Origin: Candidatus Levybacteria bacterium RIFCSPHIGHO2_01_FULL_40_16
GTDB lineage: Bacteria; Patescibacteriota; Microgenomatia; Levybacterales; UBA12049
Length of the DNA stretch: 64,000 nucleotides
Direction: 5' to 3'
Assembly: GCA_001783805.1 (NCBI GenBank)
Contig: MFNS01000001.1
Location: 192,649 to 256,648 of the forward strand
Translations under genes and position numbers: made by a program
The notes under the pieces: model-generated
Databases searched by the model: none
The model's input: only the letters and a program-made list of their open reading frames with translations
Told to the model about the DNA's origin: nothing
In this document: positions 3,404 to 62,019 of the stretch, piece after piece
Layout of the letters: every line of letters starts with the position of its first letter
Position numbering within the stretch: the stretch's first letter is position 1

Positions 3404-5419
3404 TTAAGATAATTTTAAAGATTTGATTTGGTCGCGGAGAAATGCGGCTTTTTCGAAATTCAAAGTCTGGGCGGCAATTTTCATTTCTTTTCGTAACTTT
3501 TTAATCAAATCTTCCCTTTCGTCAGGAAGCAAAACTTCTTTTTTGGCAAGGTCAAGATAAAAATTCAAACTGCCTTTGTAATTTTTACTTTCCGTAATTT
3601 CTTCGTCAATTAATTTTTCTCTAATTTGTTTTTGTATTCCGATTGGTTTTTTGTGATATTTTTTGTTGTATTTCAGCTGGATATTCCTGCGTCTTTCAAC
3701 CTCATTAATTGCATTTTTCATCGAACCTGTGACATTGTCAGCATACATAATTACCTCCGCATCAACATGTCTGGCCGCTCTTCCCATAGTTTGAATAAGC
3801 GATGTTCTACTGCGCAGAAATCCTTCTTTGTCCGCATCCAAAATCGCAACCAAAGAAACTTCGGGTAGATCCAATCCTTCACGCAGCAAATTAATTCCAA
3901 CCAGGACATCGTATTCGCCTTTTCTCAATCTATCCAAAATATCTTGTCTCTCTAGCGTTTGAATGTCGGAGTGCAGATACGCGACTTTAACATTTTGTTC
4001 TTCCAAATAACTGGAAAGCTCTTCCGCCATTCGTTTGGTTAAGGTAGTTACCAAAATTCTTTGTTTTTTGGCAACTCTTTTATTAATTTCATCAATCAGA
4101 TCTATAATTTGTCCTTTGGTTGGTTTGATAATTACTTTCGGATCAACCAAATTGGTTGGGCGAATCAATTGTTCGACAACCGCTCCGTCAGCTGACGGAT
4201 TGTCTTTGGCTAAAGATAACTCGTACTCGTCAGGAGTGGCGCTGACATAAGTAATTTGGTTAACTCTTTGCATAAATTCAGTAAATTTGAGCGGACGGTT
4301 GTCCAATGCGGAGGGAAGACGGAAACCATAATCAATTAAAGTGTTCTTTCTTGATTGATCTCCGTTGTACATTCCTCTTATTTGTGGAATTGTAATATGT
4401 GATTCATCAATAATTGTCAGGAAGTTTTTTGATGCATGCTTAAAATAGTCTAGTAAGGTATAGGGCGGCTGGCCGGGCGCTCTACCGTCAAAATAACGCG
4501 AATAATTTTCAATTCCATTGACGTAGCCTACTTCTTTGATCATTTCCAAATCAAAATTCGTCCGTTGTTCCAGCCTGTGGGCTTCCAAATTTTTACCAAC
4601 GCTTTTTAAAAATTTAACTTGTGTTTCCATGTCTTTTCTGATTATCGGAAACACATTATTGTAAGTATGCGGATCAGTCATATAATGTTTGGCAGGATAA
4701 ATCACCGTACCCTTCAAAATTGCAATTGTGTCGCCGGTTAAAGAATTAAACTCAGAAAGTTTATAGAGCTTATTCTTTTTAAGCTCAATTCTAATTCCTG
4801 TGTCTTTATAAGCCGGAAAAAGATCAATTGATTCGCCTCTAACCCGAAAACCGCCTCTGGCGAAAGCATATTCATTGCGTTCGTATTGCAGGTCGGTCAG
4901 ACGGATCATGATAGATTTTAAATCAGTCTTCATTCCGGGGACTAGCTCCATGACAAATTTTCCGTATTCAACCGGGGAGCCTAAATTGTAAATACAGGAG
5001 ACCGAAGCAACAACAATTACATCTTTTCTAGTTAATAAATTGGTTGTTGCGGAAAGCCGTAATTTATCAATTTCCTCATTAATTTCCGCCTCTTTTTCGA
5101 TGTAGGTGTCGCTTTGCGGGATATAAGCTTCGGGCTGGTAATAATCGTAGTAGGAGACAAAATAGGAAACGGCATTTTGCGGGAAAAAATCCCTGAATTC
5201 CTGATAAAGTTGTGCGGCCAGAGTTTTATTATGCGAAATTACCAGTGTTGGTTTTTGAACTTTTTGAATTACATTAGCCATGGTGAAAGTTTTACCAGAT
5301 CCGGTCACGCCTAGCAGAACCTGATTCCGGACATTGTTTTCAATGTTTTTCACCAGTTTTTCGATTGCCTGCGGCTGATCTCCGGTCGGTTTAAAATCCG
5401 ACTTCAGCTTAAATTTCAT
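3404..5419 (-). CDS. uvrB: excinuclease ABC subunit B
   Basis: GDQPQAI...GVTGSGKT Walker A, YYDYYQPEAYIP, and the DGRAPGQPP motif. Confidence 0.9.
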   Translation of the reverse strand: MKFKLKSDFKPTGDQPQAIEKLVKNIENNVRNQVLLGVTGSGKTFTMANVIQKVQKPTLVISHNKTLAAQLYQEFRDFFPQNAVSYFVSYYDYYQPEAYIPQSDTYIEKEAEINEEIDKLRLSATTNLLTRKDVIVVASVSCIYNLGSPVEYGKFVMELVPGMKTDLKSIMIRLTDLQYERNEYAFARGGFRVRGESIDLFPAYKDTGIRIELKKNKLYKLSEFNSLTGDTIAILKGTVIYPAKHYMTDPHTYNNVFPIIRKDMETQVKFLKSVGKNLEAHRLEQRTNFDLEMIKEVGYVNGIENYSRYFDGRAPGQPPYTLLDYFKHASKNFLTIIDESHITIPQIRGMYNGDQSRKNTLIDYGFRLPSALDNRPLKFTEFMQRVNQITYVSATPDEYELSLAKDNPSADGAVVEQLIRPTNLVDPKVIIKPTKGQIIDLIDEINKRVAKKQRILVTTLTKRMAEELSSYLEEQNVKVAYLHSDIQTLERQDILDRLRKGEYDVLVGINLLREGLDLPEVSLVAILDADKEGFLRSRTSLIQTMGRAARHVDAEVIMYADNVTGSMKNAINEVERRRNIQLKYNKKYHKKPIGIQKQIREKLIDEEITESKNYKGSLNFYLDLAKKEVLLPDEREDLIKKLRKEMKIAAQTLNFEKAAFLRDQIKSLKLS

Positions 5420-5526: not shown

Positions 5527-6156
5527 ATGCCGGGAGTAATTTACAAAAAAGAAAGAGAAGTTTTGGAATACCTTGCCCAATTTCAAAGACAATTTGGCTA
5601 TTCTCCAACGCTTAAGGAGATAGCGGGAGCTACAGGACACAGAAGCAATTCTACGGTTCATTCGTTAATTAAGTCTTTGGTTGATAAGGGCTATATCCAA
5701 AAAGTTGATGGGAATAACAGAGTGCTTAAAATTGTTGATCAGAAAGTTACATTCTCTCTGTTAGGAAGTACCGCTTCAATAGAGCTTCCTCTGATGGGCT
5801 ATATTGCCGCAGGAAAGCCCCTGGAGCCTCACAGCGACCCCAATGCTACATTTCATGTATCGGCATCAATGATATCCGGCAAAAAAACCGCTTATGTTTT
5901 GCAGGTCAAAGGCAATTCCATGATTGAGGATGGGATATTTGACGGAGATTTTGTGGTTATTGAAAAAGCAGAAACGGCGACAAATGGAGATATTGTGGTT
6001 GCTTTAGTTGATAATAATATGGCGACTTTAAAAAGATTTTTTAATGAAAATGGAAAGATTGTTTTGAAACCTGCTAATGCAGAAATGGCACCGATTTACC
6101 CGAATACCCTTTTAATTCAGGGAAAAGCTGTGGGAATTGTCCGCAAATTCTCCTAA
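5527..6156 (+). CDS. lexA: LexA repressor (S24 peptidase)
   Basis: N-terminal wHTH (YSPTLKEIAGATGHRSNSTVHSLIKSL); C-terminal S24 domain (VKGNSMIEDGIFDGDFVVI...LKRF). Confidence 0.85.
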   Translation: MPGVIYKKEREVLEYLAQFQRQFGYSPTLKEIAGATGHRSNSTVHSLIKSLVDKGYIQKVDGNNRVLKIVDQKVTFSLLGSTASIELPLMGYIAAGKPLEPHSDPNATFHVSASMISGKKTAYVLQVKGNSMIEDGIFDGDFVVIEKAETATNGDIVVALVDNNMATLKRFFNENGKIVLKPANAEMAPIYPNTLLIQGKAVGIVRKFS

Positions 6157-6158
6157 AA

Positions 6159-6785
6159 TTACTGCTTTTTGAATTTTATTATTTTGAGTTTGTGGTTGAC
6201 GTAAAATAATATAGCGAAGATCAGCAAAATCGCTAAGATTAAGTCGAATCGATGAAAATATACACCAATTGTATTCCATTTATTCCCAAGATAAACTCCG
6301 ATATAAGTTAAAAATGCTGACCAAATTAAAGAGCCAAGAAATGTGTAAATTGAAAATTTCCAAAAATTCATCTCAGCTAACCCGCAAGGCAAGGAGATAA
6401 ATGTCCTGACTGCAGGAAGCATACGGCTGAAAAAAGCAATTTTATCACCATATTTATTAAACCATTTCAGAGAGCGTTCGTATTCGTGGATAGTGATTAA
6501 AATAAATTTGCCATATTTTTTAATTAAGCTGACGATTATTGTCTCCTCCAAAAAATATCCAACTGCATAGGCAAGCCAAGATCCTACTAAATTCGCTAAG
6601 GCTCCGACGACGATAACAGCTATAAAAGAAAATTGACCTGTAGTTACCAAATATCCCGCAAAAGGCATTGTTACCTCGGATGGGATAGGTATTAAAGCCG
6701 ATTCTAAAGCCATGAGTAGGAATACGCCAAGATAGCCTGAGGATTGGATAAGTTGTATAATAAAGCCTGACAACAATTCAATCAT
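6159..6785 (-). CDS. DedA/TVP38-family membrane protein (start trimmed to MIELLSG to avoid overlap with rsmI)
   Basis: GYLGVFLLMALESALIPIPSEV DedA motif; multiple TM helices. Confidence 0.65.
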   Translation of the reverse strand: MIELLSGFIIQLIQSSGYLGVFLLMALESALIPIPSEVTMPFAGYLVTTGQFSFIAVIVVGALANLVGSWLAYAVGYFLEETIIVSLIKKYGKFILITIHEYERSLKWFNKYGDKIAFFSRMLPAVRTFISLPCGLAEMNFWKFSIYTFLGSLIWSAFLTYIGVYLGNKWNTIGVYFHRFDLILAILLIFAILFYVNHKLKIIKFKKQ

Positions 6786-7491: not shown

Positions 7492-8090
7492 AGGATTTTT
7501 TTGGAGATGACGTTGCCATTATTGTCAATTTCAAATAAATCAACTTCACCGACTTCAATTTCCAATTCTGATACACCTTCATCGTTAATGTTTTCAAGAT
7601 ATTTGATTAGAGCTCTTAGGGAATTTCCGTGGGCAATGATAAGAACATTTTTACCTTTTTTCAATTCTGGCAAAATTTCAGCTTGATAATAGGGGATTGT
7701 CCGATCATATACGTCTTTCAAGCTTTCTCCATTTTCAATTGGTGAATCCCAGCTTCTGCGAATTTTTAAAAATTGTTCGTTTCCGACTTCTTTTTGAATT
7801 TCCCACTTATTTTTTCCCGTATAAATTCCGTAATCGCGTTCGTTTAAAGCTTTGTCTTCGAAAGTAGGAATATCTATTTTTAAAACATTTTTTATCTCAT
7901 CAAGTGTTTGCTTTGCACGTATCAATACGGACGCAAAAGCAAGATCAATAGACATGCCTTTTAACTTTTCTCCGGCAAACCTGGACTGCTGTATTCCTTT
8001 TTCACTTAAACCAATATCGGTTAACCCTGTCCACAGGCCCTTTGCGTTCCATTCCGATTCTCCGTGTCTGACCAAAATTAAATTCGCCAC
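7488..8090 (-). CDS. gpmA: histidine-phosphatase family phosphoglycerate mutase
   Basis: LILVRHGESEWNAKGLWTG catalytic His motif. Confidence 0.75.
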   Translation of the reverse strand: MANLILVRHGESEWNAKGLWTGLTDIGLSEKGIQQSRFAGEKLKGMSIDLAFASVLIRAKQTLDEIKNVLKIDIPTFEDKALNERDYGIYTGKNKWEIQKEVGNEQFLKIRRSWDSPIENGESLKDVYDRTIPYYQAEILPELKKGKNVLIIAHGNSLRALIKYLENINDEGVSELEIEVGEVDLFEIDNNGNVISKKIL

Positions 8091-8097
8091 ACTTTCT

Positions 8098-9351
8098 TTA
8101 TAAAATTTTTAACTGATTTTCTATTTGCAAAAGTCTATTGTATTTCGCAATATTCTCACCCCTGGCTAAACTGCCTATTTTAATGTAATCTGCCGAAACC
8201 GAAACTGAAAAATCAGACAAAAAATCATCATTCGTCTCACTCTCTCTATGGGAAACAGTTACTTTTAAGCCTGTTTCTTTAGCTGCTTCCGCGACCGCCA
8301 AAGACTCGATGACCGTACCTATCTGGCTTGGTTTCACCACAATGGCGTTGACGGCTTTTTTGTCAATAGCCATTTGCAGCCTATATGGGTTGGTTGCGAT
8401 AAGGTCGCCCCCGGCAACTATAGTTGTGCCGGACAATTTTTCAAAAAGTGATGTCCATCCCTCCCAATCATCCTGATACAAAGGATCCTCTAAATATAAA
8501 AGATGAATATTCCGATTTAGTTCTTCGTAATAACTTATGAGATCTTTTGAGGATAGAGCCGTAGCACTATCTTTAAGATGATAATTTCCATTCTTGAAAA
8601 AGCTTGAAGCCCGGCTATTTAATCCAAAGAAAACATCAAAGCCAAGCTTGACATAGGTATTTCCGATTGCCTGCTCAATTAAAGAAAATGCTTCTTTATT
8701 TGTTGTCAGATCGGGAGTGAATCCTTCTTCGTATTCATCCAGCATCCTGGCATATTTTGTTTCAATAACCTGTTTGAGCGATTTCCGGACTGCTTCTCCG
8801 ATTTGGATAGATTCCAAATAAGATTTTGACGAGGCAGGAACAATCAGAAATTCATGAAAATCCGCTGAATGGCCTCTTGCTCCATCAATAAGATTAAAAA
8901 TTGGGGTAGGAATCTTAAGCGCTTCGCGATCTTTTTTTATAAATTGCCTAAGATACAGAAAAAGAGGAAGTACGGAGCTTTCTGCACCGGCTTTTGCAAC
9001 CGCCATCGACACTGCCAAAGTAGCATTCGTTCCAAGGCGTGATTTGTTTTGCGTACCGTCAAGATCAATCATAATCTTGTCTATTTCCGGCTGACGTTCC
9101 GCCTCTTTTCCTATTAGGGCAGGGGCAATAACATTTTTAATATTGCTTATTGCTTTGCTTACTCCCTGGCCTTCAAAAGTATTTTGGTCATTATCTTTTA
9201 AGGCAACTGCTTCATAGTTACTTATTTTTTCTCCAGTCGGACATGAAGCTACTCCAATTTTTCCATCATTGAGTATAATTGTTGCCTCAATTGTCGGAAG
9301 TCCTTTGGCATTAAGGATTTCCCGTGCATCAACTGCTTTTATTTTTGTCAT
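8098..9351 (-). CDS. eno: enolase
   Basis: N-terminal ARE(I)LNAKGLPTIEA; full-length enolase architecture. Confidence 0.85.
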   Translation of the reverse strand: MTKIKAVDAREILNAKGLPTIEATIILNDGKIGVASCPTGEKISNYEAVALKDNDQNTFEGQGVSKAISNIKNVIAPALIGKEAERQPEIDKIMIDLDGTQNKSRLGTNATLAVSMAVAKAGAESSVLPLFLYLRQFIKKDREALKIPTPIFNLIDGARGHSADFHEFLIVPASSKSYLESIQIGEAVRKSLKQVIETKYARMLDEYEEGFTPDLTTNKEAFSLIEQAIGNTYVKLGFDVFFGLNSRASSFFKNGNYHLKDSATALSSKDLISYYEELNRNIHLLYLEDPLYQDDWEGWTSLFEKLSGTTIVAGGDLIATNPYRLQMAIDKKAVNAIVVKPSQIGTVIESLAVAEAAKETGLKVTVSHRESETNDDFLSDFSVSVSADYIKIGSLARGENIAKYNRLLQIENQLKIL

Positions 9352-18453: not shown

Positions 18454-18527
18454 TACCTCCGACCGGATTCGAACCGGTGATTCTCTGGCTGAAAACCAGA
18501 TGTCCTAGGCCGCTAGACGACGGAGGC
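18454..18527 (-). tRNA. tRNA-Glu (anticodon TTC)
   Basis: GCCTCCG acceptor, D-arm TCGTCTAGCGGCCTAGGACA, loop TTTTCAG, T-loop TTCGAAT; no encoded CCA. Confidence 0.8.
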
Positions 18528-18770
18528 TTGATGTTTAATTAAATTTTCAATTGCAACCCTGCTTTTAAGCGATTTTAAATAAAATTCTCTTTTTCGAGCT
18601 TCTGATAACGTTTCATATTCTTCTTTGTAAATAAGTTTAAACGGTCCCCGATTTTTTGTATACTTTGAACGTCCTTTATTGTGATCTGTAAGCCGGCGAT
18701 TAATGTCAGTCGTACTGCCAATGTAATGTCTACCGTCAATATCACTTCTTAATATATAAGTCGTAAACAT
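18513..18770 (-). CDS. small GIY-YIG nuclease-family protein (start trimmed to MFTTYILRS); 3' end overlaps tRNA-Glu by about 15 nt
   Basis: YILRS...RHYIGSTTDINRRLTDHN...YTKNRGPFKLIY...REFYLKS: GIY-YIG core. Confidence 0.6.
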   Translation of the reverse strand: MFTTYILRSDIDGRHYIGSTTDINRRLTDHNKGRSKYTKNRGPFKLIYKEEYETLSEARKREFYLKSLKSRVAIENLIKHQASVV

Positions 18771-18969
18771 TTTGGTCCTAGGTTCCGATTTAATCGCGAA
18801 TGCTCGATGGATAAATCCATCGGCACCGCTAGCCCCGATGATCGGTGTCATCGGGATCCCGCACGAATGAAATTCGTCGGGAACGATGGCGGCAAGCATT
18901 ATTGATTATACCAACTTTCCTAAAAAAACCCAAGACTCACTTAAGAGCCTCGGGAGAATAAACTTTAAT

Positions 18970-39851: not shown

Positions 39852-41129
39852 CTAAATAGATTCAGCAGCCAATTTGGTGCGTTCGTATTTGTCTGCCATG
39901 TAGCCGTTGGGAACCGTGGTAAGTTTGTCTGAATATAATAAAAATCCATTGCGGATGGTATGATCGCCAAAACGCTCATTAATAAAATCTACTGTTTGTT
40001 GCAAAGAATTCTGCTTTGCAGAAGAATCAAATAAAGATAGGGGAGTATTGCTTGAGTCCTCTAAACCTGATGCCGTAATTCCAATTTGCCTGACATATTT
40101 AAAATTATTGACATTAACTAAATTGGTTAATAAATCAAACATTTCTTTACCTGTATCAAAATATTTCGTATAAGTTTTTCTTTGATGTAAATTTATGTTT
40201 CCGCCAAAATAATATCCGACAGTCCTGGCTTTTTTATTTAAGCGCCTTAATTTGATGCAAACTTCTTCGCACAATTCATAAATGTTTTGCAGAACAACTT
40301 TTTTATTATATTCGTTTTGGGGCAAACAATAATTCCGTCCCACCGATTTCACTTCCGGAGTCTTAGTGTAGGAACTTAGAACATCTGTGCTTAAGCCTAA
40401 GCCTACTTGATGTAAAAACTCTGCCTCTGCAGAGCCAAATTCCTGAATTAATAATGATAAATTCGCATCCCGTAATTGCAATAGATTGTAAATGCCGATC
40501 TTATTAAGTCTTAATTTTATTCTTTCTCCGATTCCGCAGACATCGGTTAATTTTGCTTTTGCATAAACTGCTCCTAAATTATCCTTGGTAATTTCGAACA
40601 CCCCGTCCGGTTTGTTAATGCTCGATGCCAATTTTGCCAAAAGTTTATTGTGCGAAATGCCAACCGAAACCGTAATATGTTCGCCGATTTTTTCTCTGAT
40701 TTCTTTTTTAAGAAGTTTTATCGTGCTATAAACTCCGCCGAATAAATGATTCGTCAAAGTAATATCCATAAAAACTTCGTCAATTGAGAAAAGTTCGACT
40801 TCCGGAGAAAAGCTTTGACAAATCTTCAAAAACTTCTTTGACACTTCCAGATATTTAACAAAATTAGCCGGAGCAAGATTCAGTGTGGGACAAATTTTCA
40901 GAGCTTCATAAGTTCGGGCTCCTGTTTTAATTCCTAATCTTTTCGCTTCGCGGCTGGAGGCAATAATACAAGTCCTGCCGTTGGTTGCGGTCACTCCGAG
41001 AGGCTTATTGCGCAAAAGGGGATTAAACTGCTGTTCGCAGCTGGCAAAAAAACTGTCAAAATCAATATGTAAAACCCGCCTGCCATCGGCTTTTGCCGAA
41101 GGTAAATGCGGGCAGGTTATTTTTTGCAT
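39852..41129 (-). CDS. dinB: DNA polymerase IV (Y-family)
   Basis: VLHIDFDSFFASCEQ catalytic motif; full UmuC/DinB architecture. Confidence 0.85.
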   Translation of the reverse strand: MQKITCPHLPSAKADGRRVLHIDFDSFFASCEQQFNPLLRNKPLGVTATNGRTCIIASSREAKRLGIKTGARTYEALKICPTLNLAPANFVKYLEVSKKFLKICQSFSPEVELFSIDEVFMDITLTNHLFGGVYSTIKLLKKEIREKIGEHITVSVGISHNKLLAKLASSINKPDGVFEITKDNLGAVYAKAKLTDVCGIGERIKLRLNKIGIYNLLQLRDANLSLLIQEFGSAEAEFLHQVGLGLSTDVLSSYTKTPEVKSVGRNYCLPQNEYNKKVVLQNIYELCEEVCIKLRRLNKKARTVGYYFGGNINLHQRKTYTKYFDTGKEMFDLLTNLVNVNNFKYVRQIGITASGLEDSSNTPLSLFDSSAKQNSLQQTVDFINERFGDHTIRNGFLLYSDKLTTVPNGYMADKYERTKLAAESI

Positions 41130-42039: not shown

Positions 42040-43941
42040 ATGAACAATTTAACATCGGATAAAATTAGAAATATCGCGGTTATTGCGCACGTTGACCACG
42101 GAAAAACTACGCTTGTAGATTTCATGCTCAAGCAGTCCCATACCTTCCGCGAAAATGAAGCGGAAATGACTCAAACTACTATTCTTGATTCAAATCCCCT
42201 GGAAAGAGAGCGGGGCATTACTATTTTGGCCAAAAATACCGCAATAAATTACAAACCTGCCCGCAATGCTTCGCCCGCCGGCATGCCTTCGGCAAAGCCG
42301 ATGGCGGCCAGGCAACACGATGCAGGCGGGGACTACAAAATTAATATTATAGATACTCCGGGGCACGCGGATTTTTCAGGGGAGGTTGAAAGGACTCTCA
42401 ATATGGCAGACGGAGCGCTTTTGATTATTGATGCGTTGGAAGGACCGATGCCGCAAACTAAATTTGTGCTTAAAAAAGCCCTTGGAATAGGTTTAAAAGT
42501 GATTGTTATCATCAATAAAATTGATAAAAAACTCGCAGATATTGCAGATTCTTTTGAAAAAACCAATGATTTATTTCTGGAATTGGCAACCGATTCGGAA
42601 CAATTGAACTTTCCCGTTCTCTATGCCGTAGGCCGCGAAGGAAAAGCAGCGGTAAAACTGGAAGATGTACAGGGAAGCAAAGATTTAGACCCAATTATGC
42701 AAACAATTATCAATTATATTCCGGCTCCAAAAGTTGACGCCGGCCCGTTTAGAATGCTGGCGACTGCTTTAGATTACGATACCCACAAAGGCAAACACGT
42801 CATCGGCAGAATCAGAAGCGGTACTCTGGAAAAAGGACAAACAGTGGTTTTAATTAATGCTAAAAATGAAAAAATTCCTGCCAAAATAGAAAATATTTAT
42901 ATAAACCGCGGTCTTAAAAAAGACGAGGTTGAAAAAGTGAGGGCCGGGGAAATAGTTGACATTACCGGAGTTGACAATGTGACTATCGGAGATACGATCG
43001 CAGATTCCAGCAATCCGGTTGCGCTTCCGCGAATTTCAATTGAAGATCCTACAATCAAAATTGCTATTTTTGCCAACACCAGCCCTTTTGCAGGCAAAGA
43101 GGGGAAATATTCAAATTCCCGCCAAGTCTATGAAAGGTTAGTTAAGGAATTGGAAACGAATATCAGTATGAAGTTAGAGGTTATGGAAGATAAATTTGTA
43201 GTTTCCGGAAGAGGGGAATTGCATTTGTCGGTTTTAATTGAAACCATGAGGCGCGAGGGTTATGAGTTCCAAGTTGAAAAACCGGAAGTAATTACAAAAA
43301 TTATCAACGGCGTAGAGATGGAGCCGGTTGAAGATTTAATTATTGATGTTCCGGACGAATTTCAAGGAATAATTTCAAGAGAGTTAGGAGAAAGAAGGGG
43401 ACAAATGACCAATATGGATGCTGACGGAAAAGGTAACACGCGTTTTGAATACAAAATTCCTTCCAAAAATCTTCTGGGACTGCGGAATACTTTATTAACC
43501 AACACTAAGGGTACAGCGGTAATCAATACTATGTTTGATAAATACGAGCCGTTGACGCCTGTACTTCCTAAAATCAGAAACGGTGTCTTGATTGCATCGG
43601 AACCGGGAACTGCCTTAACTTTTGGCCTGCAAAACGCGCAAGGAAGAGGCATAACTTTTATTGACCCCGGAACATCGGTTTATGAGGGAATGATTGTCGG
43701 TCTAAATACGAGAAGCGATGATATTGAAATAAATGTTGCTAAAGGAAAACACTTAACCAATATGCGGTCCGCAAATGCGGACATTGCAATTGCTTTAACT
43801 CCGCCCCTCAAAATGAGTTTAGAACAATATTTGGATTTTTTGGAAGACGACGAGCTTTTGGAGGTAACACCGAAAAGTTTAAGGCTGCGTAAAAAACTTT
43901 TGACCCGTCTTGACCGTGTTAGGGCTGCAAGAGTACAATAA
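42040..43941 (+). CDS. typA: translational GTPase TypA/BipA carrying a 25-aa in-frame insertion (PARNASPAGMPSAKPMAARQHDAGG) in the G domain
   Basis: AIIAHVDHGKTTL, DTPGHADF and NKID motifs; the insertion is encoded by a 76-nt GC-rich element at 42256-42331. Confidence 0.85.
   Translation: MNNLTSDKIRNIAVIAHVDHGKTTLVDFMLKQSHTFRENEAEMTQTTILDSNPLERERGITILAKNTAINYKPARNASPAGMPSAKPMAARQHDAGGDYKINIIDTPGHADFSGEVERTLNMADGALLIIDALEGPMPQTKFVLKKALGIGLKVIVIINKIDKKLADIADSFEKTNDLFLELATDSEQLNFPVLYAVGREGKAAVKLEDVQGSKDLDPIMQTIINYIPAPKVDAGPFRMLATALDYDTHKGKHVIGRIRSGTLEKGQTVVLINAKNEKIPAKIENIYINRGLKKDEVEKVRAGEIVDITGVDNVTIGDTIADSSNPVALPRISIEDPTIKIAIFANTSPFAGKEGKYSNSRQVYERLVKELETNISMKLEVMEDKFVVSGRGELHLSVLIETMRREGYEFQVEKPEVITKIINGVEMEPVEDLIIDVPDEFQGIISRELGERRGQMTNMDADGKGNTRFEYKIPSKNLLGLRNTLLTNTKGTAVINTMFDKYEPLTPVLPKIRNGVLIASEPGTALTFGLQNAQGRGITFIDPGTSVYEGMIVGLNTRSDDIEINVAKGKHLTNMRSANADIAIALTPPLKMSLEQYLDFLEDDELLEVTPKSLRLRKKLLTRLDRVRAARVQ
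42256..42331 (+). repeat. GC-rich miniature repeat element (CCTGCCCGC...GCAGGCGGGG), in-frame inside typA
   Basis: About 68% GC in a roughly 37% GC context; the same termini occur at 47517-47560 and 60157-60199. Confidence 0.6.
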
Positions 43942-45605: not shown

Positions 45606-45869
45606 CTATTCTAGCTTATCATAGTTTTCGAAAATGATTTTTCTCAATCTATGTCCAAAACCAGACTTTAAAAATTGTTTTCTTTTATCTGCGCACAATC
45701 TGCAATAAAAGTTTTCGAAATAAACTAAACGCCATGGCCGATTTGTCTTCGTATATCTAGAAAGTCCATCATTATGTTCCTTCAATCTAGATTCAATATC
45801 TTTTATTGTTAATCCTATATATGTCTTGCTTTTGTTGTGTAAACTTTTCAAAAAGTAAACTTTATACAT
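45606..45869 (-). CDS. small GIY-YIG nuclease-family protein
   Basis: MYKVYFLKS...TYIGLTIKDIESRLKEHNDG...WRLVYFE: GIY-YIG core; close paralog of the 47227 gene. Confidence 0.65.
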   Translation of the reverse strand: MYKVYFLKSLHNKSKTYIGLTIKDIESRLKEHNDGLSRYTKTNRPWRLVYFENFYCRLCADKRKQFLKSGFGHRLRKIIFENYDKLE

Positions 45870-47226: not shown

Positions 47227-47502
47227 ATGTATAAAGTTTATTTATTGCATAGCCTAAAAGACACAGGGATGTCTTACGTTGGATTAACAATTAAGGAAAT
47301 AGACAAGAGAGTTGAAGAACATAATAAAGGACTATCACAATATACAAAAACATTTAAGCCGTGGAGATTAGTTTATTACGAACTTTTCTATTGCAGAACA
47401 TGTGCCGAAAAAAGAGAACAATTCTTGAAAAGTGGAGTAGGATATCAATTAAGAAAACATCTGCTTACATTTAAGAATTCTTCTTTGAAGAACGGGGGTT
47501 AG
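47227..47502 (+). CDS. small GIY-YIG nuclease-family protein; 3' end runs through a hairpin variant (TTCTTCTTTGAAGAA) into the split-tRNA locus
   Basis: MYKVYLLHS...YVGLTIKEIDKRVEEHNKG...WRLVYYE. Confidence 0.65.
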   Translation: MYKVYLLHSLKDTGMSYVGLTIKEIDKRVEEHNKGLSQYTKTFKPWRLVYYELFYCRTCAEKREQFLKSGVGYQLRKHLLTFKNSSLKNGG

Positions 47503-47721
47503 CTCAGTTGGCTAGACCTGCCCGCAATTGCCTGGAGCCGATAGCGACTGGCAGGCGGGGCGCGCGGTTTGGCCCGCCTGACTTGAAATGACGGGGTGTA
47601 GTTCATCGGTAGAACGCTCGGTTTGGGACCGAGAAGCAACAGGTCCAATTCCTGTCACCCCGACAAGTCATTTCGGGCAGGGACCGTGAGGTCGGAGGTT
47701 CAAATCCTCTACCCCCGACCA
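47493..47721 (+). ncRNA. split tRNA-like gene: 5' half (acceptor CGGGGGT plus D-arm, 47493-47518) and 3' half (47675-47721: variable region, canonical T-arm GGAGG-TTCAAAT-CCTCT, acceptor ACCCCCG-A-CCA) separated by about 155 nt that contain a GC-rich repeat and a complete tRNA-Pro
   Basis: The outer 5' and 3' acceptor strands are perfectly complementary (7 bp) and a 7-bp CCTGCCC/GGGCAGG helix closes the insert; the 3' half resembles the tRNA-Pro 3' end (…GGTCGGAGGTTCAAATCCTCT…ACCA). Confidence 0.4.
47592..47663 (+). tRNA. tRNA-Pro (anticodon TGG) nested in the split tRNA-like locus; atypical T-loop TCCAATT
   Basis: CGGGGTG/CACCCCG acceptor (C1-G72), loop TTTGGGA; flanked by inverted repeat GAAATGA / TCATTTC. 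Confidence 0.65.
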
Positions 47722-47807
47722 AGTTGAGTTTTTATGTGCTAAAATTGAAGTAGTTTACTTCGGATAATTAAAGCGGGCCTGCCCGCCGAAGTTCCGAAGG
47801 AACGTAG

Positions 47808-47878
47808 GCGGGTGTAGTTTAATGGCAGAACACGACTTTTCCAAAGTCGATACGAGGGTTCGATTCCCTTCACCCGCT
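47808..47878 (+). tRNA. tRNA-Gly (anticodon TCC)
   Basis: GCGGGTG acceptor, loop TTTCCAA, T-loop TTCGATT; preceded by a compound GC-rich hairpin (47757-47803). Confidence 0.85.
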
Positions 47879-55887: not shown

Positions 55888-55926
55888 TCCTACTTAGATT
55901 CGCCAAATTTTACTTTTTAGTTAGTG

Positions 55927-55997
55927 CTGCGGGACTAGGAATCGGACCTAGATTAGAGGATCCAAAGTCCTCCGTCCTACCATTAAACGATCCCGCA
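55927..55997 (-). tRNA. tRNA-Gln (anticodon TTG) with U1-A72 and G73; atypical T-loop TCCGATT
   Basis: TGCGGGA/TCCCGCA acceptor, loop CTTTGGA. Confidence 0.7.
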
Positions 55998-57729: not shown

Positions 57730-57987
57730 CTAGGCATGATCATTCCAGTCTTTTAATCTTTTCCGCAAATAACTTTTGCCCAAACGAGTTTTGAGATATT
57801 TTTCTCTACGATAAGCATCAATTTCGCTTAGGCTGGCTTCGTAGTATATTATATCAAATGGAGCATATGGGCTGGTAGACTTAACCATTTTCTCATTATG
57901 CTCTCTAAATCTTCCTCTTAAATCATTAGTACATCCTGTATACAGAAATTTTCTGGACGTACTTTTTAAAACATAAACGTAAAACAT
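57730..57987 (-). CDS. small GIY-YIG nuclease-family protein, 5 nt downstream of the tRNA-Val locus
   Basis: MFYVYVLKS...LYTGCTNDLRGRFREHN...FDIIYYE. Confidence 0.65.
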   Translation of the reverse strand: MFYVYVLKSTSRKFLYTGCTNDLRGRFREHNEKMVKSTSPYAPFDIIYYEASLSEIDAYRREKYLKTRLGKSYLRKRLKDWNDHA

Positions 57988-57991
57988 CTTG

Positions 57992-58172
57992 TGGACTCTA
58001 GAGGATTTGAACCTCTGACATCTTCGATGTAAACGAAGCGCCCGGCCTGACTGGACTTTGTGGACCCGAGAGGATTCGAACCTCTGACCTTCTCAGTGTA
58101 AATGAGACGCTCTACCAACTGAGCCACGGGTCCATTCAAAGTCGGGCAGGTCTACCGCTGAGCTAAGAGTCC
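57992..58172 (-). ncRNA. split tRNA-Val-like gene: 5' half (acceptor GGACTCT plus D-arm, 58146-58172) and 3' half (57992-58060: anticodon arm with TAC, T-arm AGAGG-TTCAAAT-CCTCT, acceptor AGAGTCC-A), with a complete tRNA-Val nested between
   Basis: The outer acceptor strands pair 7/7 (one G-U); the 5' half matches the Pro-locus 5' half over TAGCTCAG..GGTAGACCTGCCCG; the nested tRNA is flanked by GACTTTG / CAAAGTC. Confidence 0.4.
58061..58133 (-). tRNA. tRNA-Val (anticodon TAC), intact, nested in the split locus
   Basis: GGACCCG acceptor, TGGCTCAGTTGGTAGAGC D-arm, loop TTTACAC, T-loop TTCGAAT. Confidence 0.85.
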
Positions 58173-60123: not shown

Positions 60124-60139
60124 AAGTATAAATTCTTAG

Positions 60140-60373
60140 TGCCCAGGGGGAGATTCCCTGCCCGCCATCAGCTGTCGCCTCAGGCGACTGCAGGCGGGGA
60201 ACTCCCAAGCCCTTGCGGACACAGCGTTCTGAACACTGCATGCCCGCCTGCCAGAGTGCCCCAAGAGGGACTCGAACCCTCACGTCCTTGCGGACACAGC
60301 GTTCTGAACACTGCATGTCTACCATTCCATCATCGGGGCACGGCGGACAGGTCTACCATTTCATCACCTGGGC
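60140..60373 (-). ncRNA. composite tRNA-Leu(CAG) locus: outer 5' half (acceptor GCCCAGG plus D-arm-like GATGAAATGGTAGAC) and outer 3' part (duplicate anticodon and variable arms, GC-rich repeat 60157-60199, acceptor CCTGGGC-A) flanking the intact tRNA
   Basis: The outer acceptor strands pair 7/7; a 32-nt duplicate of the anticodon/variable arm (CCTTGCGGACACAGCGTTCTGAACACTGCATG) is present twice; the 5' half ends GACCTGTCCGCC, like the other split loci. Confidence 0.35.
60257..60339 (-). tRNA. tRNA-Leu (anticodon CAG), class II
   Basis: GCCCCGA/TTGGGGC acceptor, loop TTCAGAA, variable arm TGTCCGCAAGGACGT, T-arm GAGGG-TTCGAGT-CCCTC. Confidence 0.8.
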
Positions 60374-60440
60374 GCATGTTGATTTTACCAGAAGCAGTTT
60401 TACTTGACAACAATGACAAAAAATGCGATTATGATAGACA

Positions 60441-61019
60441 ATGAGAAAGATACTTCTGTCTACCTCTTTCTTTATACTTACACCCATCTTACTTTTCGCA
60501 AGTATAATTTATTTCCTCTTTTTGTCCTATGATTCCAAGCTTCACAATAACTTAACTGGTCAAAGCTCAAACCGCGGTGTAGCATTTGCGGCCTTGCCCT
60601 CGGTTGAAAATGTGCTGGGAGACAGCATTGTCTTCAAGGACATAAGAGTAGAAATAGTCAAGCAATTTTTTGCAAAATATAAATCCCCACTTGAGTCATT
60701 TGCTCAAAATGTTGTTGAAGATGCGGATAAATATGATCTTGATTATAGGCTCTTACCGGCAATAGCCATGCAGGAATCGAATCTATGCAAAAAAATTGTC
60801 ACAGATTCATATAATTGCTGGGGGTTTGGAATCTATGGCAAGAAGGTAACCAGATTCGAAAGCTATCCTGAAGCAATTAGTACAGTGACCAAGACCCTAG
60901 CGAACAATTATATGGCAGGAGGCTTAAATACGCCTGAAGAAATTATGAAAAAATACACTCCCTCCAATAACGGAGCGTGGGCCGAGAGTGTCAACTACTT
61001 CATGAGCCTGCTTCAATAA
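60441..61019 (+). CDS. secreted protein, paralog 1 (tentatively peptidoglycan-hydrolase-like)
   Basis: Signal/TM; conserved block KY.SPL...A..KY.LD..L..AI...ES..... shared with the 61289 gene. Confidence 0.4.
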   Translation: MRKILLSTSFFILTPILLFASIIYFLFLSYDSKLHNNLTGQSSNRGVAFAALPSVENVLGDSIVFKDIRVEIVKQFFAKYKSPLESFAQNVVEDADKYDLDYRLLPAIAMQESNLCKKIVTDSYNCWGFGIYGKKVTRFESYPEAISTVTKTLANNYMAGGLNTPEEIMKKYTPSNNGAWAESVNYFMSLLQ

Positions 61020-61927: not shown

Positions 61928-62010
61928 GCGGATGTGGCGAAATGGTAGACGCGATAGGTTTAGGACCTATTGACCGCAAGGTCTTGGGGGTTCGAGTCCT
62001 CTCATCCGCA
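61928..62010 (+). tRNA. tRNA-Leu (anticodon TAG), class II; TTGAAG-17-TATAAT promoter upstream
   Basis: GCGGATG acceptor, loop TTTAGGA, variable arm TGACCGCAAGGTCT, T-loop TTCGAGT. Confidence 0.85.
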
Positions 62011-62019
62011 CTCTAAATT

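Follow-up and report, generated by a model that had tools for sequence, protein, structure and literature searches.

Palindromic elements in a Candidatus Levybacteria genome that probably carry tRNA genes into, and replace, cognate tRNA genes

Several kinds of described mobile DNA resemble, each in part, the elements that are the subject of this study. Rickettsia palindromic elements (RPEs) are short, GC-rich, hairpin-forming mobile repeats of a reduced genome, which are dispersed between genes, occur in RNA genes and stand in-frame in conserved proteins, to which they add surface peptides. REP/BIME (repetitive extragenic palindromic and bacterial interspersed mosaic elements) and the miniature inverted-repeat transposable elements (MITEs) derived from IS200/IS605 form hairpins, encode no protein and insert in either orientation without target-site duplication, and mobile insertion cassettes have ends that flank a passenger gene, lack an internal transposase and are presumably moved in trans. 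Integrative elements that target tRNA genes (phages, integrative and conjugative elements, pNOB8/SSV-type elements and that of Caldiarchaeum) land in a tRNA gene, supply a replacement and leave tRNA fragments behind. Here we analyse a 64,000-nt stretch (the window) of contig MFNS01000001.1 from Candidatus Levybacteria bacterium RIFCSPHIGHO2_01_FULL_40_16, a small-genome groundwater bacterium of the Candidate Phyla Radiation (CPR; Patescibacteria), in which three tRNA genes are each interrupted by a GC-rich hairpin that itself contains an intact tRNA gene. We conclude that these hairpins probably belong to a family of palindromic mobile elements with a cargo form that enters the cognate tRNA gene and takes over its function.

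The Levybacteria elements share the features just listed for RPEs, including the addition of peptides to proteins (here BipA and a DinB-like polymerase), but differ from them in sequence family (CCTGCCCGC...GCAGGCGGG), in host phylum, in length (30-45 nt without cargo, which is shorter) and in their strong enrichment at tRNA genes. To our knowledge, no RPE has a cargo form with a complete tRNA gene, and literature searches returned none. Unlike REP/BIME and IS200/IS605-derived MITEs, which form separate subterminal hairpins, the Levybacteria elements have ends that pair with each other; their flanks show neither a conserved tetranucleotide target nor a guide, a Y1 transposase was not identified in the ORFs scanned, and the tRNA cargo and its insertion into a cognate gene set them further apart. 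Compared with mobile insertion cassettes they are about ten times smaller, and the passenger tRNA is always the equivalent of the disrupted gene. Integrative elements measure kilobases, encode an integrase, recombine within a shared segment of identity and exchange no more than the 3' part of the tRNA, one of them being the 1.8-kb recombinase-bearing element that disrupts a Caldiarchaeum tRNA-Thr (PMC3293823), whereas the Levybacteria cassette is ~110 nt, encodes no protein and brings an entire new tRNA, the existing gene being split at position 23/24 or in the anticodon loop. Our literature searches, on bacterial tRNAs that are nested or disrupted, on the tRNAs of Levybacteria and on MITEs within tRNA genes, brought up no earlier description of a protein-less ~110-nt cassette with a whole tRNA inside its cognate gene, in line with the remark, in a first-pass annotation of the window made from its letters alone, that the arrangement was not known to have been described for bacteria.

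The same annotation had placed nested tRNA genes at the Pro, Val and Leu loci, and the loci do lie at the positions and on the strands given, with the nested tRNAs found by both ARAGORN and Rfam (Table 1). It had described the surrounding pieces as two halves of a tRNA-like gene. They are indeed tRNA-like, but they are the exons of a full tRNA, three of them at the Pro and Leu loci; when joined in silico, they yield flawless ARAGORN cloverleaves of tRNA-Pro(TGG), tRNA-Val(TAC) and tRNA-Leu(CAG), so that the outer sequences of all three loci do fold as tRNA, each with the anticodon of the tRNA nested within it. The outer genes are interrupted by one (Val) or two (Pro, Leu) GC-rich inserts, at position 23/24 (D stem), at 36/37 (directly after the anticodon) or in the T loop, between TTC and GAAT. 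The shared anticodon, the second, cargo-less insert at the Pro and Leu loci and the further copies in protein genes had escaped the first reading, while a conserved junction of TAGA with CCTG(C/T)CCG and the short inverted repeats that it saw around the nested tRNAs are present. The cargo-less 43-nt element of the Pro locus folds as a hairpin of -18.7 kcal/mol and recurs in a relative (L129; codes of this kind denote compared loci from other Levybacteria genomes and metagenomes) with 2/43 differences. The arms of the Pro cassette are opposite in orientation to the tRNA (the element runs A-to-B on the minus strand), and the T-loop site of the Leu locus is also filled, in the other orientation, in the outer Val-GAC gene of L023. 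Since the Val and Leu loci are identical across six independent assemblies from different samples, an assembly artefact was ruled out.

Table 1. Interrupted tRNA genes, element copies and neighbouring GIY-YIG genes of the window, and their counterparts in relatives
Locus	Feature	Coordinates	Strand	Remarks
Pro	Outer (resident) tRNA-Pro(TGG) exon 1, positions 1-23	47493-47516	+	joins with other exons
Pro	Cargo-less hairpin element, 43 nt, at 23/24	47517-47559	+	begins CCTGCCCGC, ends GGCAGGCGGG
Pro	Outer tRNA-Pro exon 2, 13 nt, positions 24-36 including anticodon TGG	47560-47572	+	GCGCGCGGTTTGG
Pro	Cargo cassette, 109 nt, at 36/37	47573-47681	+	arms CCCGCCTG...CGGGCAGG; inner stalk GAAATGA/TCATTTC
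Pro	Nested cargo tRNA-Pro(TGG)	47592-47664	+	T loop TCCAATT; ARAGORN; Rfam 64 bits
Pro	Outer tRNA-Pro exon 3, position 37 to 3' end	47682-47721	+	CCA encoded
Val	Outer (resident) tRNA-Val(TAC) exon 1	58151-58172	-	joined cloverleaf
Val	Cargo cassette, 109 nt, at 23/24	58042-58150	-	arms CCTGCCCGAC...GTCAGGCCGG; stalk ACTTTG/CAAAGT
Val	Nested cargo tRNA-Val(TAC)	58060-58133	-	Rfam 76 bits
Val	Outer tRNA-Val(TAC) exon 2, position 24 to 3' end	57992-58041	-	joined cloverleaf; Rfam partial tRNA
Leu	Outer (resident) tRNA-Leu(CAG) exon 1	60352-60373	-	promoter-like site ends 9 nt upstream
Leu	Cargo cassette, 109 nt, in D arm after ...GGTAGA	60243-60351	-	arms CCTGTCCGCC...GGCAGGCGGG
Leu	Nested cargo tRNA-Leu(CAG)	60256-60339	-	ARAGORN, Rfam
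Leu	Outer tRNA-Leu(CAG) exon 2: anticodon arm, variable arm, first half of T arm	60199-60242	-
Leu	Cargo-less hairpin element, 42 nt, in outer T loop (TTC/GAAT)	60157-60198	+	opposite to tRNA
Leu	Outer tRNA-Leu(CAG) exon 3	60140-60156	-
Gly	Cargo-less element, 35 nt, at position 5/6 of tRNA-Gly(TCC)	47778-47812	+	orphan GCGGG upstream; L129 site empty
BipA	Element in element, 36 nt outer + 39 nt inner (42274-42312, reverse orientation)	42256-42330	+	in-frame, +25 aa
DinB-like polymerase	Cargo-less element, 42 nt, after codon 4	41075-41116	-	in-frame, +14 aa; removal restores MQKI/ILHIDFD
Leu-TAG	Uninterrupted tRNA-Leu(TAG)	61928-62011	+	orthologue (empty site) of interrupted outer Leu-TAG in L007
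tRNA-Pro side	GIY-YIG gene	47227-47502	+	ends within outer Pro exon 1
tRNA-Val side	GIY-YIG gene	57730-57987	-	starts 5 nt past outer Val gene
tRNA-His/tRNA-Arg	GIY-YIG gene	45606-45869	-	between the two tRNAs
tRNA-Glu	GIY-YIG gene	18513-18899	-	at tRNA-Glu
L129	Pro locus			doubly interrupted as in window
L007/L015, L019	Nested Leu-TAG
L022	Nested Gln-TTG			at 36/37
L023	Nested Val-GAC			at 23/24, plus 32-nt copy in T loop
L030, L081	Nested Val-TAC
L081	Nested Leu-CAG			second locus
L069, L071	Nested Gly-GCC			anticodon loop
L129	GIY-YIG gene	2002-2256
L069	GIY-YIG gene	139-420
L071	GIY-YIG gene	7674-7946
L007	GIY-YIG gene	5940-6200

All of these inserts share their ends, CCTG(C/T)CCG(C/A)C and G(G/T)CAGGC(G/C)GG or the reverse complements in the other orientation, with the general form CCTGCCCG...CAGGCGGG and a family consensus of CCTGCCCG(C/A)C and G(G/C)AGGCGGG, and in every copy the two ends pair and close a hairpin (folds of -15 to -41 kcal/mol). 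In the window the 8-mer CCTGCCCG is found 8 times where 0.77 would be expected, so its recurrence is not due to chance. The basic element, without cargo, is 30-45 nt long, and the cargo form (102-127 nt) holds an entire tRNA gene in the hairpin loop. At least 9 copies lie in the window and dozens at other Levybacteria loci and in metagenomes. Presence/absence polymorphism provides clean empty/filled pairs for Leu-CAG, Val-TAC, Pro-TGG, Leu-TAG, Gly-TCC and BipA; comparison of homologous loci thus found the uninterrupted orthologues whose existence the first-pass annotation had proposed to check, and every pair represents an insertion without target-site duplication or deletion. The sequences directly 5' of the insertions, in element orientation, are TAGA (at D-arm sites only), TTTG, CAAA, ATAA, GGTC, ATTC, GTTC and GTGG. 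All three window cassettes are exactly 109 nt long although their tRNAs measure 73, 74 and 84 nt, and 109 nt is also the commonest length elsewhere; this may be a coincidence or a length constraint.

Half of the short cargo-less elements (8/16) lie within 150 nt of a tRNA, compared with 10.5% expected (p ~9e-5), and within tRNA genes they occur only where a nested replacement is already present or where the element restores the tRNA end. The latter is the case in tRNA-Gly(TCC), a working gene in which the insertion is tolerated because the element's own 3' GCGGG rebuilds the 5' end of the tRNA. In BipA, two elements, one within the other, add 25 residues (PARNASPAGMPSAKPMAARQHDAGG) to the GTPase domain, directly before the DTPGH motif, and only in this lineage; the site is empty, between NTAINYK and DYKINIIDTPGH, in 11/11 aligned relatives, and longer BipA homologues contain no further in-frame inserts, their length differences being confined to the termini. 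The three copies embedded in open reading frames (ORFs), of 42, 36 and 39 nt, are all multiples of three and leave the frames open, while only one of ten tabulated cargo-less copies outside ORFs (32-43 nt) is a multiple of three. In-frame copies are what would be expected if the element is translated in place, as RPEs are, and not cut from the RNA. Short inserts are found in either orientation relative to the transcript.

To see how far the architecture extends, we compared 80 species-level Levybacteria loci around the trigger factor gene. Hairpin-closed GC-rich segments were deleted in silico, one or two at once, and ARAGORN was used to find tRNAs spanning the junctions; a motif scan was then run. 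Together, the two procedures recovered all three window loci, and the nested architecture was found in ~25 further loci of other Levybacteria genomes and metagenomes. In relatives whose trigger factor is 74-86% identical the local gene order is retained, and the Val-TAC and Leu-CAG genes there are not interrupted. A metagenome search with the pattern TAGA + CCTGCCCGAC ... CAGGCGGG, which does not demand a tRNA, returned 32 matches, of which 9 were chance matches in high-G+C DNA and 23 (16-17 distinct loci) were cassettes, carrying Val-CAC, Val-TAC, Val-GAC, Leu-TAG or Arg-CCG; the cargo tRNA was intact in every true match. Cargo insertions occur at 23/24 for Val, Leu and Arg, and in the anticodon loop for Pro, Gln and Gly. 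Among 435 tRNAs in 84 loci, none was interrupted without holding a nested copy; L044 and L067, candidates for tRNAs with short inserts alone, proved to be decayed remnants beside intact tRNAs, or fragments. Segments of ~121 nt in a conserved ORF (L022, L026, L027) were likewise rejected as chance end-matches outside the family.

The outer genes are, judged by their closest matches, ancestral residents, and the inner genes are imports, since the former match uninterrupted orthologues and the latter match genes of other lineages. The joined outer Leu-CAG gene is identical to the uninterrupted L011 gene at 82/83 positions and to that of L007 at 80/83, while the nested Leu gene matches resident-type genes at 72-74/84. 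Similarly, the joined outer Pro gene agrees with the uninterrupted Pro-TGG genes of L130 and L133 at 71-72/75 positions, compared with 56-59 for the nested Pro gene, and the nested and outer Pro genes are identical at 56/77 positions. The joined outer Val gene is nearest to the uninterrupted Val-TAC of L007 (65/72), and the nested Val gene is nearly identical (73/74) to the sole Val-TAC of L013.

The cargo and the gene it interrupts are strictly paired. The anticodons agree in ~21/21 loci where the outer one is readable, and this holds for 12/12 loci among three Val isoacceptors with a common D arm. The cargo tRNA is always co-oriented with the outer gene, and lies either way relative to the element ends. 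Cassettes are also conserved well beyond their hosts. Between the window and L129, the Pro cassette has 0/109 differences (100% identity) amid flanks that are ~63% identical with indels (~37% divergent); the Val cassette is 94% identical between the window and L030 (exons and flanks 50-86%), the Leu-TAG cassette 99% identical between L007 and L019 (exons 52-67%), and the Gly cassette 96% identical between L069 and L071 (flanks 54-77%). These identities cover the non-tRNA arms and spacers too.

Decay, by comparison, is confined to the outer genes. These are perfect at all three window loci and in L007, L022, L023, L098, L105, L114, L117 and L121, but the outer cognate anticodon loop is unreadable in 6/20 D-arm loci and several more are partly decayed. 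The sole Val-TAC gene of L013, which is of the window's cargo type, has a mutated outer 5' exon and an A arm upstream, and its outer 3' side is gone. Orphan 5' exon fragments with short elements stand beside intact tRNAs in L050 and L067, and layered remnants of repeated invasions were found in L007, L115, L118 and L013. Of the readings that the first-pass annotation offered, it is therefore that of tRNA-carrying insertion elements which the data support, through the empty and filled sites, the conservation of cassettes beyond their hosts, the cognate cargo and the decay of the outer genes.

Sequence comparison itself thus shows a dispersed element family that has spread among species, clean insertions with empty and filled counterparts, resident outer and imported inner genes, cognate pairing, and decay on the outer side alone. 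From these patterns we propose the following course of events. Moved by an enzyme presumably acting in trans, the cargo form inserts cleanly within a resident tRNA gene of the same anticodon and would thereby destroy it. The cargo tRNA, lying in the same orientation, would be transcribed from the resident promoter. Promoter-like sites do directly precede outer exon 1 at the Leu and Val loci, and no cassette contains one, but this evidence is weak, as shuffled sequence yields no fewer such sites. Release of the cargo tRNA would presumably depend on RNase P and 3' processing, perhaps preceded by cleavage of a stalk formed by the arms; in predicted folds, the arms and inner stalk (GAAATGA/TCATTTC, ACTTTG/CAAAGT) lengthen the cargo acceptor stem, and this helix could serve as a processing stalk. 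The cargo tRNA would then take over decoding. The outer RNA would go unrepaired, and the interrupted resident would become a relic that gathers cargo-less elements and point mutations and finally vanishes, while the newly arrived tRNA may itself become the site of another invasion. Pure survivorship may explain the cognate pairing and the co-orientation, because with one gene per anticodon any other kind of insertion into a tRNA gene would be lethal, or the two may reflect targeting by homology. The second option leads to a stronger version of the proposal, which we put forward tentatively and hold at less than an even chance: the cassettes would be minimal protein-less homing elements, in effect selfish tRNA genes, in which the cargo itself, or its homology to the exons, directs insertion to the cognate gene and the host becomes dependent on the newcomer when the old gene has decayed, giving rise to continual horizontal turnover of tRNA genes throughout Levybacteria.

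Several observations weigh against replacement by a mobile element. A mobile-element reading offers no account of the way in which a cargo reaches the cognate gene. In the ORFs scanned we identified no mobilising function such as a transposase (Y1 (HUH) enzymes included) or a recombinase, and the insertion sites have no common target word beyond the TAGA of D-arm sites. The reading-frame pattern is based on three elements and is statistically weak. Several outer genes are flawless, doubly interrupted ones (window Pro, window Leu and L023) among them, and the recurrent insertion points at 23/24, 36/37 and 56/57 could reflect RNA-level constraints. The outer Pro exons, in addition, differ between the window and L129 at 5/77 positions (one in the D loop, two in the variable region, and one change each from G-U to A-U and from A-U to G-U), all of them structure-compatible and at the rate of the functional tRNAs of these genomes (16/308, 5.2%). 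This would fit both a recent arrival of the cassette in the two lineages, as its 0/109 divergence indicates, and selection on an outer gene repaired at the RNA level.

One alternative is homing, in which a nuclease, such as one of the small GIY-YIG proteins whose genes adjoin tRNA genes here, would cut the uninterrupted tRNA allele, and repair would copy the interrupted allele from incoming or sister DNA by means of its exons as homology arms. A cassette spreading in this way would be limited automatically to its cognate gene, and the insertions are in fact strictly cognate and clean, without target duplication. Candidate nucleases are at hand. Of the 27 small GIY-YIG ORFs in the sampled Levybacteria DNA, which span 80-130 aa and comprise the catalytic domain only, 26 have a tRNA gene no more than 300 nt away, compared with 17.7% expected (p ~6e-19), and such ORFs adjoin 5 of ~29 nested loci (window Pro and Val, L129, L069 and L071). 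A precedent is provided by SegB of phage T4, a GIY-YIG homing endonuclease within a tRNA gene cluster (PMC2330249), which is a selfish element that biases inheritance of the tRNA region. The Levybacteria proteins differ from SegB in having the catalytic domain only, with no recognisable DNA-binding domain, and they are absent from most cassette loci. In particular, the strong association with tRNAs made GIY-YIG genes a candidate component of the cassette, which we rejected since none accompanies the 17 metagenome cassette loci (0/17). The exons beside near-identical cassettes diverge, as in L007 and L019, which implies little co-conversion and, in that pair, too little homology for recombination. 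Nor does homing explain cargo-less copies in ORFs and intergenic DNA. We therefore regard homing as unlikely, although less so than the alternatives that follow. Given their absence from most cassette loci, the GIY-YIG proteins appear at most accessory to, or parallel with, the cassettes; their genes may be selfish in their own right and likewise make use of tRNA loci, or may supply DNA breaks in trans.

Could the inserts instead be removed from the RNA? Interruptions in the D arm, anticodon loop and T loop, with GC-rich complements abutting the exons, are also features of archaeal non-canonical introns, split and tri-split tRNAs and the disrupted tRNAs of Cyanidioschyzon, and the first-pass annotation had considered intron-like or split tRNAs. 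On this account, a protein-dependent bacterial cut-and-ligate activity would yield two tRNAs per gene, or the outer parts would form a base-paired split tRNA after excision by RNase P and RNase Z. The exons do join to perfect tRNAs, in several relatives as well as at all three loci of the window, a GC-rich helix closes each insert and abuts the junction, insertion positions recur, and the outer Pro gene has changed in the manner of a functional tRNA. Hand inspection and folds, however, revealed no bulge-helix-bulge at any junction: the closing helix is blunt, starting with the two terminal nucleotides of the insert, and no pairing is possible between the 5' exon ends (e.g. CUAGA) and the 3' end of the insert (GGCGGG). 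The insert holds a redundant intact tRNA and the host is a bacterium. The likeness to multi-intron and split tRNAs of archaea is no more than superficial. The tRNA introns reported to date from Patescibacteria are ribozymes of group I or group II (PMC13011429). The group I introns of this superphylum likewise lie in tRNAs that standard annotation overlooked, but they are self-splicing, hundreds of nt long and located in the anticodon loop, whereas the inserts studied here (32-127 nt) carry no ribozyme signature, and Rfam scans of the window, at gathering and E-value thresholds, gave tRNAs only. Splicing is further argued against by the short inserts in both orientations, by the in-frame multiples of three in ORFs, by outer genes that have decayed in many lineages while cargo never has, and by the lack of an interrupted tRNA without a nested copy. 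Taken together, these points make RNA-level removal improbable.

We also considered that nested copies arose in place, the resident gene having undergone local duplication or conversion around an existing hairpin, with no horizontal mobility. In the window Leu-CAG locus and in L019, L114, L116 and L117, outer positions 24 to ~47 are identical to the cargo, as this account would have it; the acceptor and T arms diverge strongly, however, the inner genes match tRNAs of other lineages, and near-identical cassettes, including their non-tRNA arms, lie amid divergent exons and flanks, which leaves an origin in place very improbable. The shared segment suggests local gene conversion, or an earlier cargo tRNA that was re-invaded.

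Least credible is a relic of integrase-mediated integration of a larger element (phage, plasmid or island) that left duplicated att segments: integration into tRNA genes is classic, crossovers are known to occur in the anticodon and T loops and the archaeal 1.8-kb case is on record, but the inserts are just 102-127 nt with no ORF and no integrase, the outer pieces are the resident gene and not duplicates of nested-gene segments, the hairpin ends are common to 30-45-nt cargo-less copies in ORFs, and viral contigs gave no true match (a scan for phage carriage had two, both by chance in high-GC coding DNA without a tRNA). The earlier suggestion of att-site remnants from repeated integration thus fails in its integrase sense and stands only in that layered remnants of cassette invasion exist.

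If replacement by cargo-bearing elements is right, simple inheritance does not account for the tRNA genes of these minimal genomes: tiny mobile cassettes overwrite them again and again, each supplying the substitute. This would constitute a mechanism of horizontal tRNA gene replacement and a compact form of genetic addiction, and would account for the tRNA fragments and GC-rich hairpins scattered at Levybacteria tRNA loci. Outer pseudogenes, missed genes and spurious ORFs could lead both tRNA-based phylogeny and tRNA annotation in CPR genomes astray. A clean, duplication-free and site-precise insertion of ~110 nt would also point to an enzyme of possible practical interest. Were the outer genes spliced instead, which is less likely, they would provide bacteria with a first known case of protein-dependent tRNA splicing.

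Some further features of these loci deserve mention. The window is bacterial and gene-dense (~37% G+C), with genes that include those for UvrA, UvrB, BipA and CTP synthase, and ARAGORN finds 17 tRNAs in its 64 kb. The trigger factor that it encodes shows 100% identity to a protein of Candidatus Levybacteria bacterium RIFCSPLOWO2_01_FULL_39. Non-canonical T loops, with TCC or ATC in place of TTC at positions 54-56 (e.g. GGTCCAATTCC, GGTCCGATTCC, GGATCAACACC), are frequent among cargo tRNAs; they occur in the nested Pro tRNA (47592-47664), in the tRNA-Gln at 55926-55997 and in the cargo tRNAs of L106, L117, L118 and L121, the first two having been noted as TCC loops from the start. Upstream of this tRNA-Gln lie an orphan TGCGGGT and the arm-like GCCTGACTTG, which suggests that it is an old cargo tRNA.

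Among the short elements, a hairpin module GTCGCC-TNA-GGCGAC recurs in the core (window 60157-60198, L030 ~8100-8140, L081 ~4880-4900), and in L030 it stands in place of the anticodon arm of the decayed outer Val gene. Two short elements in L067 (14232-14269 and 14299-14335) lie 30 nt apart in non-coding DNA, 1.1 kb from the nearest tRNA; the segment 14232-14335 has no convincing Rfam match to a known RNA gene, and the sequence interrupted there might be another small RNA gene. GC-rich nested loci create spurious ORFs of 100-140 aa (window 60139-60444 on the plus strand, L081 and L071), and in public assemblies gene callers have annotated small hypothetical proteins over or beside nested loci. 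Finally, many public records of metagenome-assembled genomes named 'uncultured Gammaproteobacteria bacterium' (L016, L018, L020, L023, L024, L027 and others) have a Levybacteria-type trigger factor and gene order, and appear to be taxonomically mislabelled.

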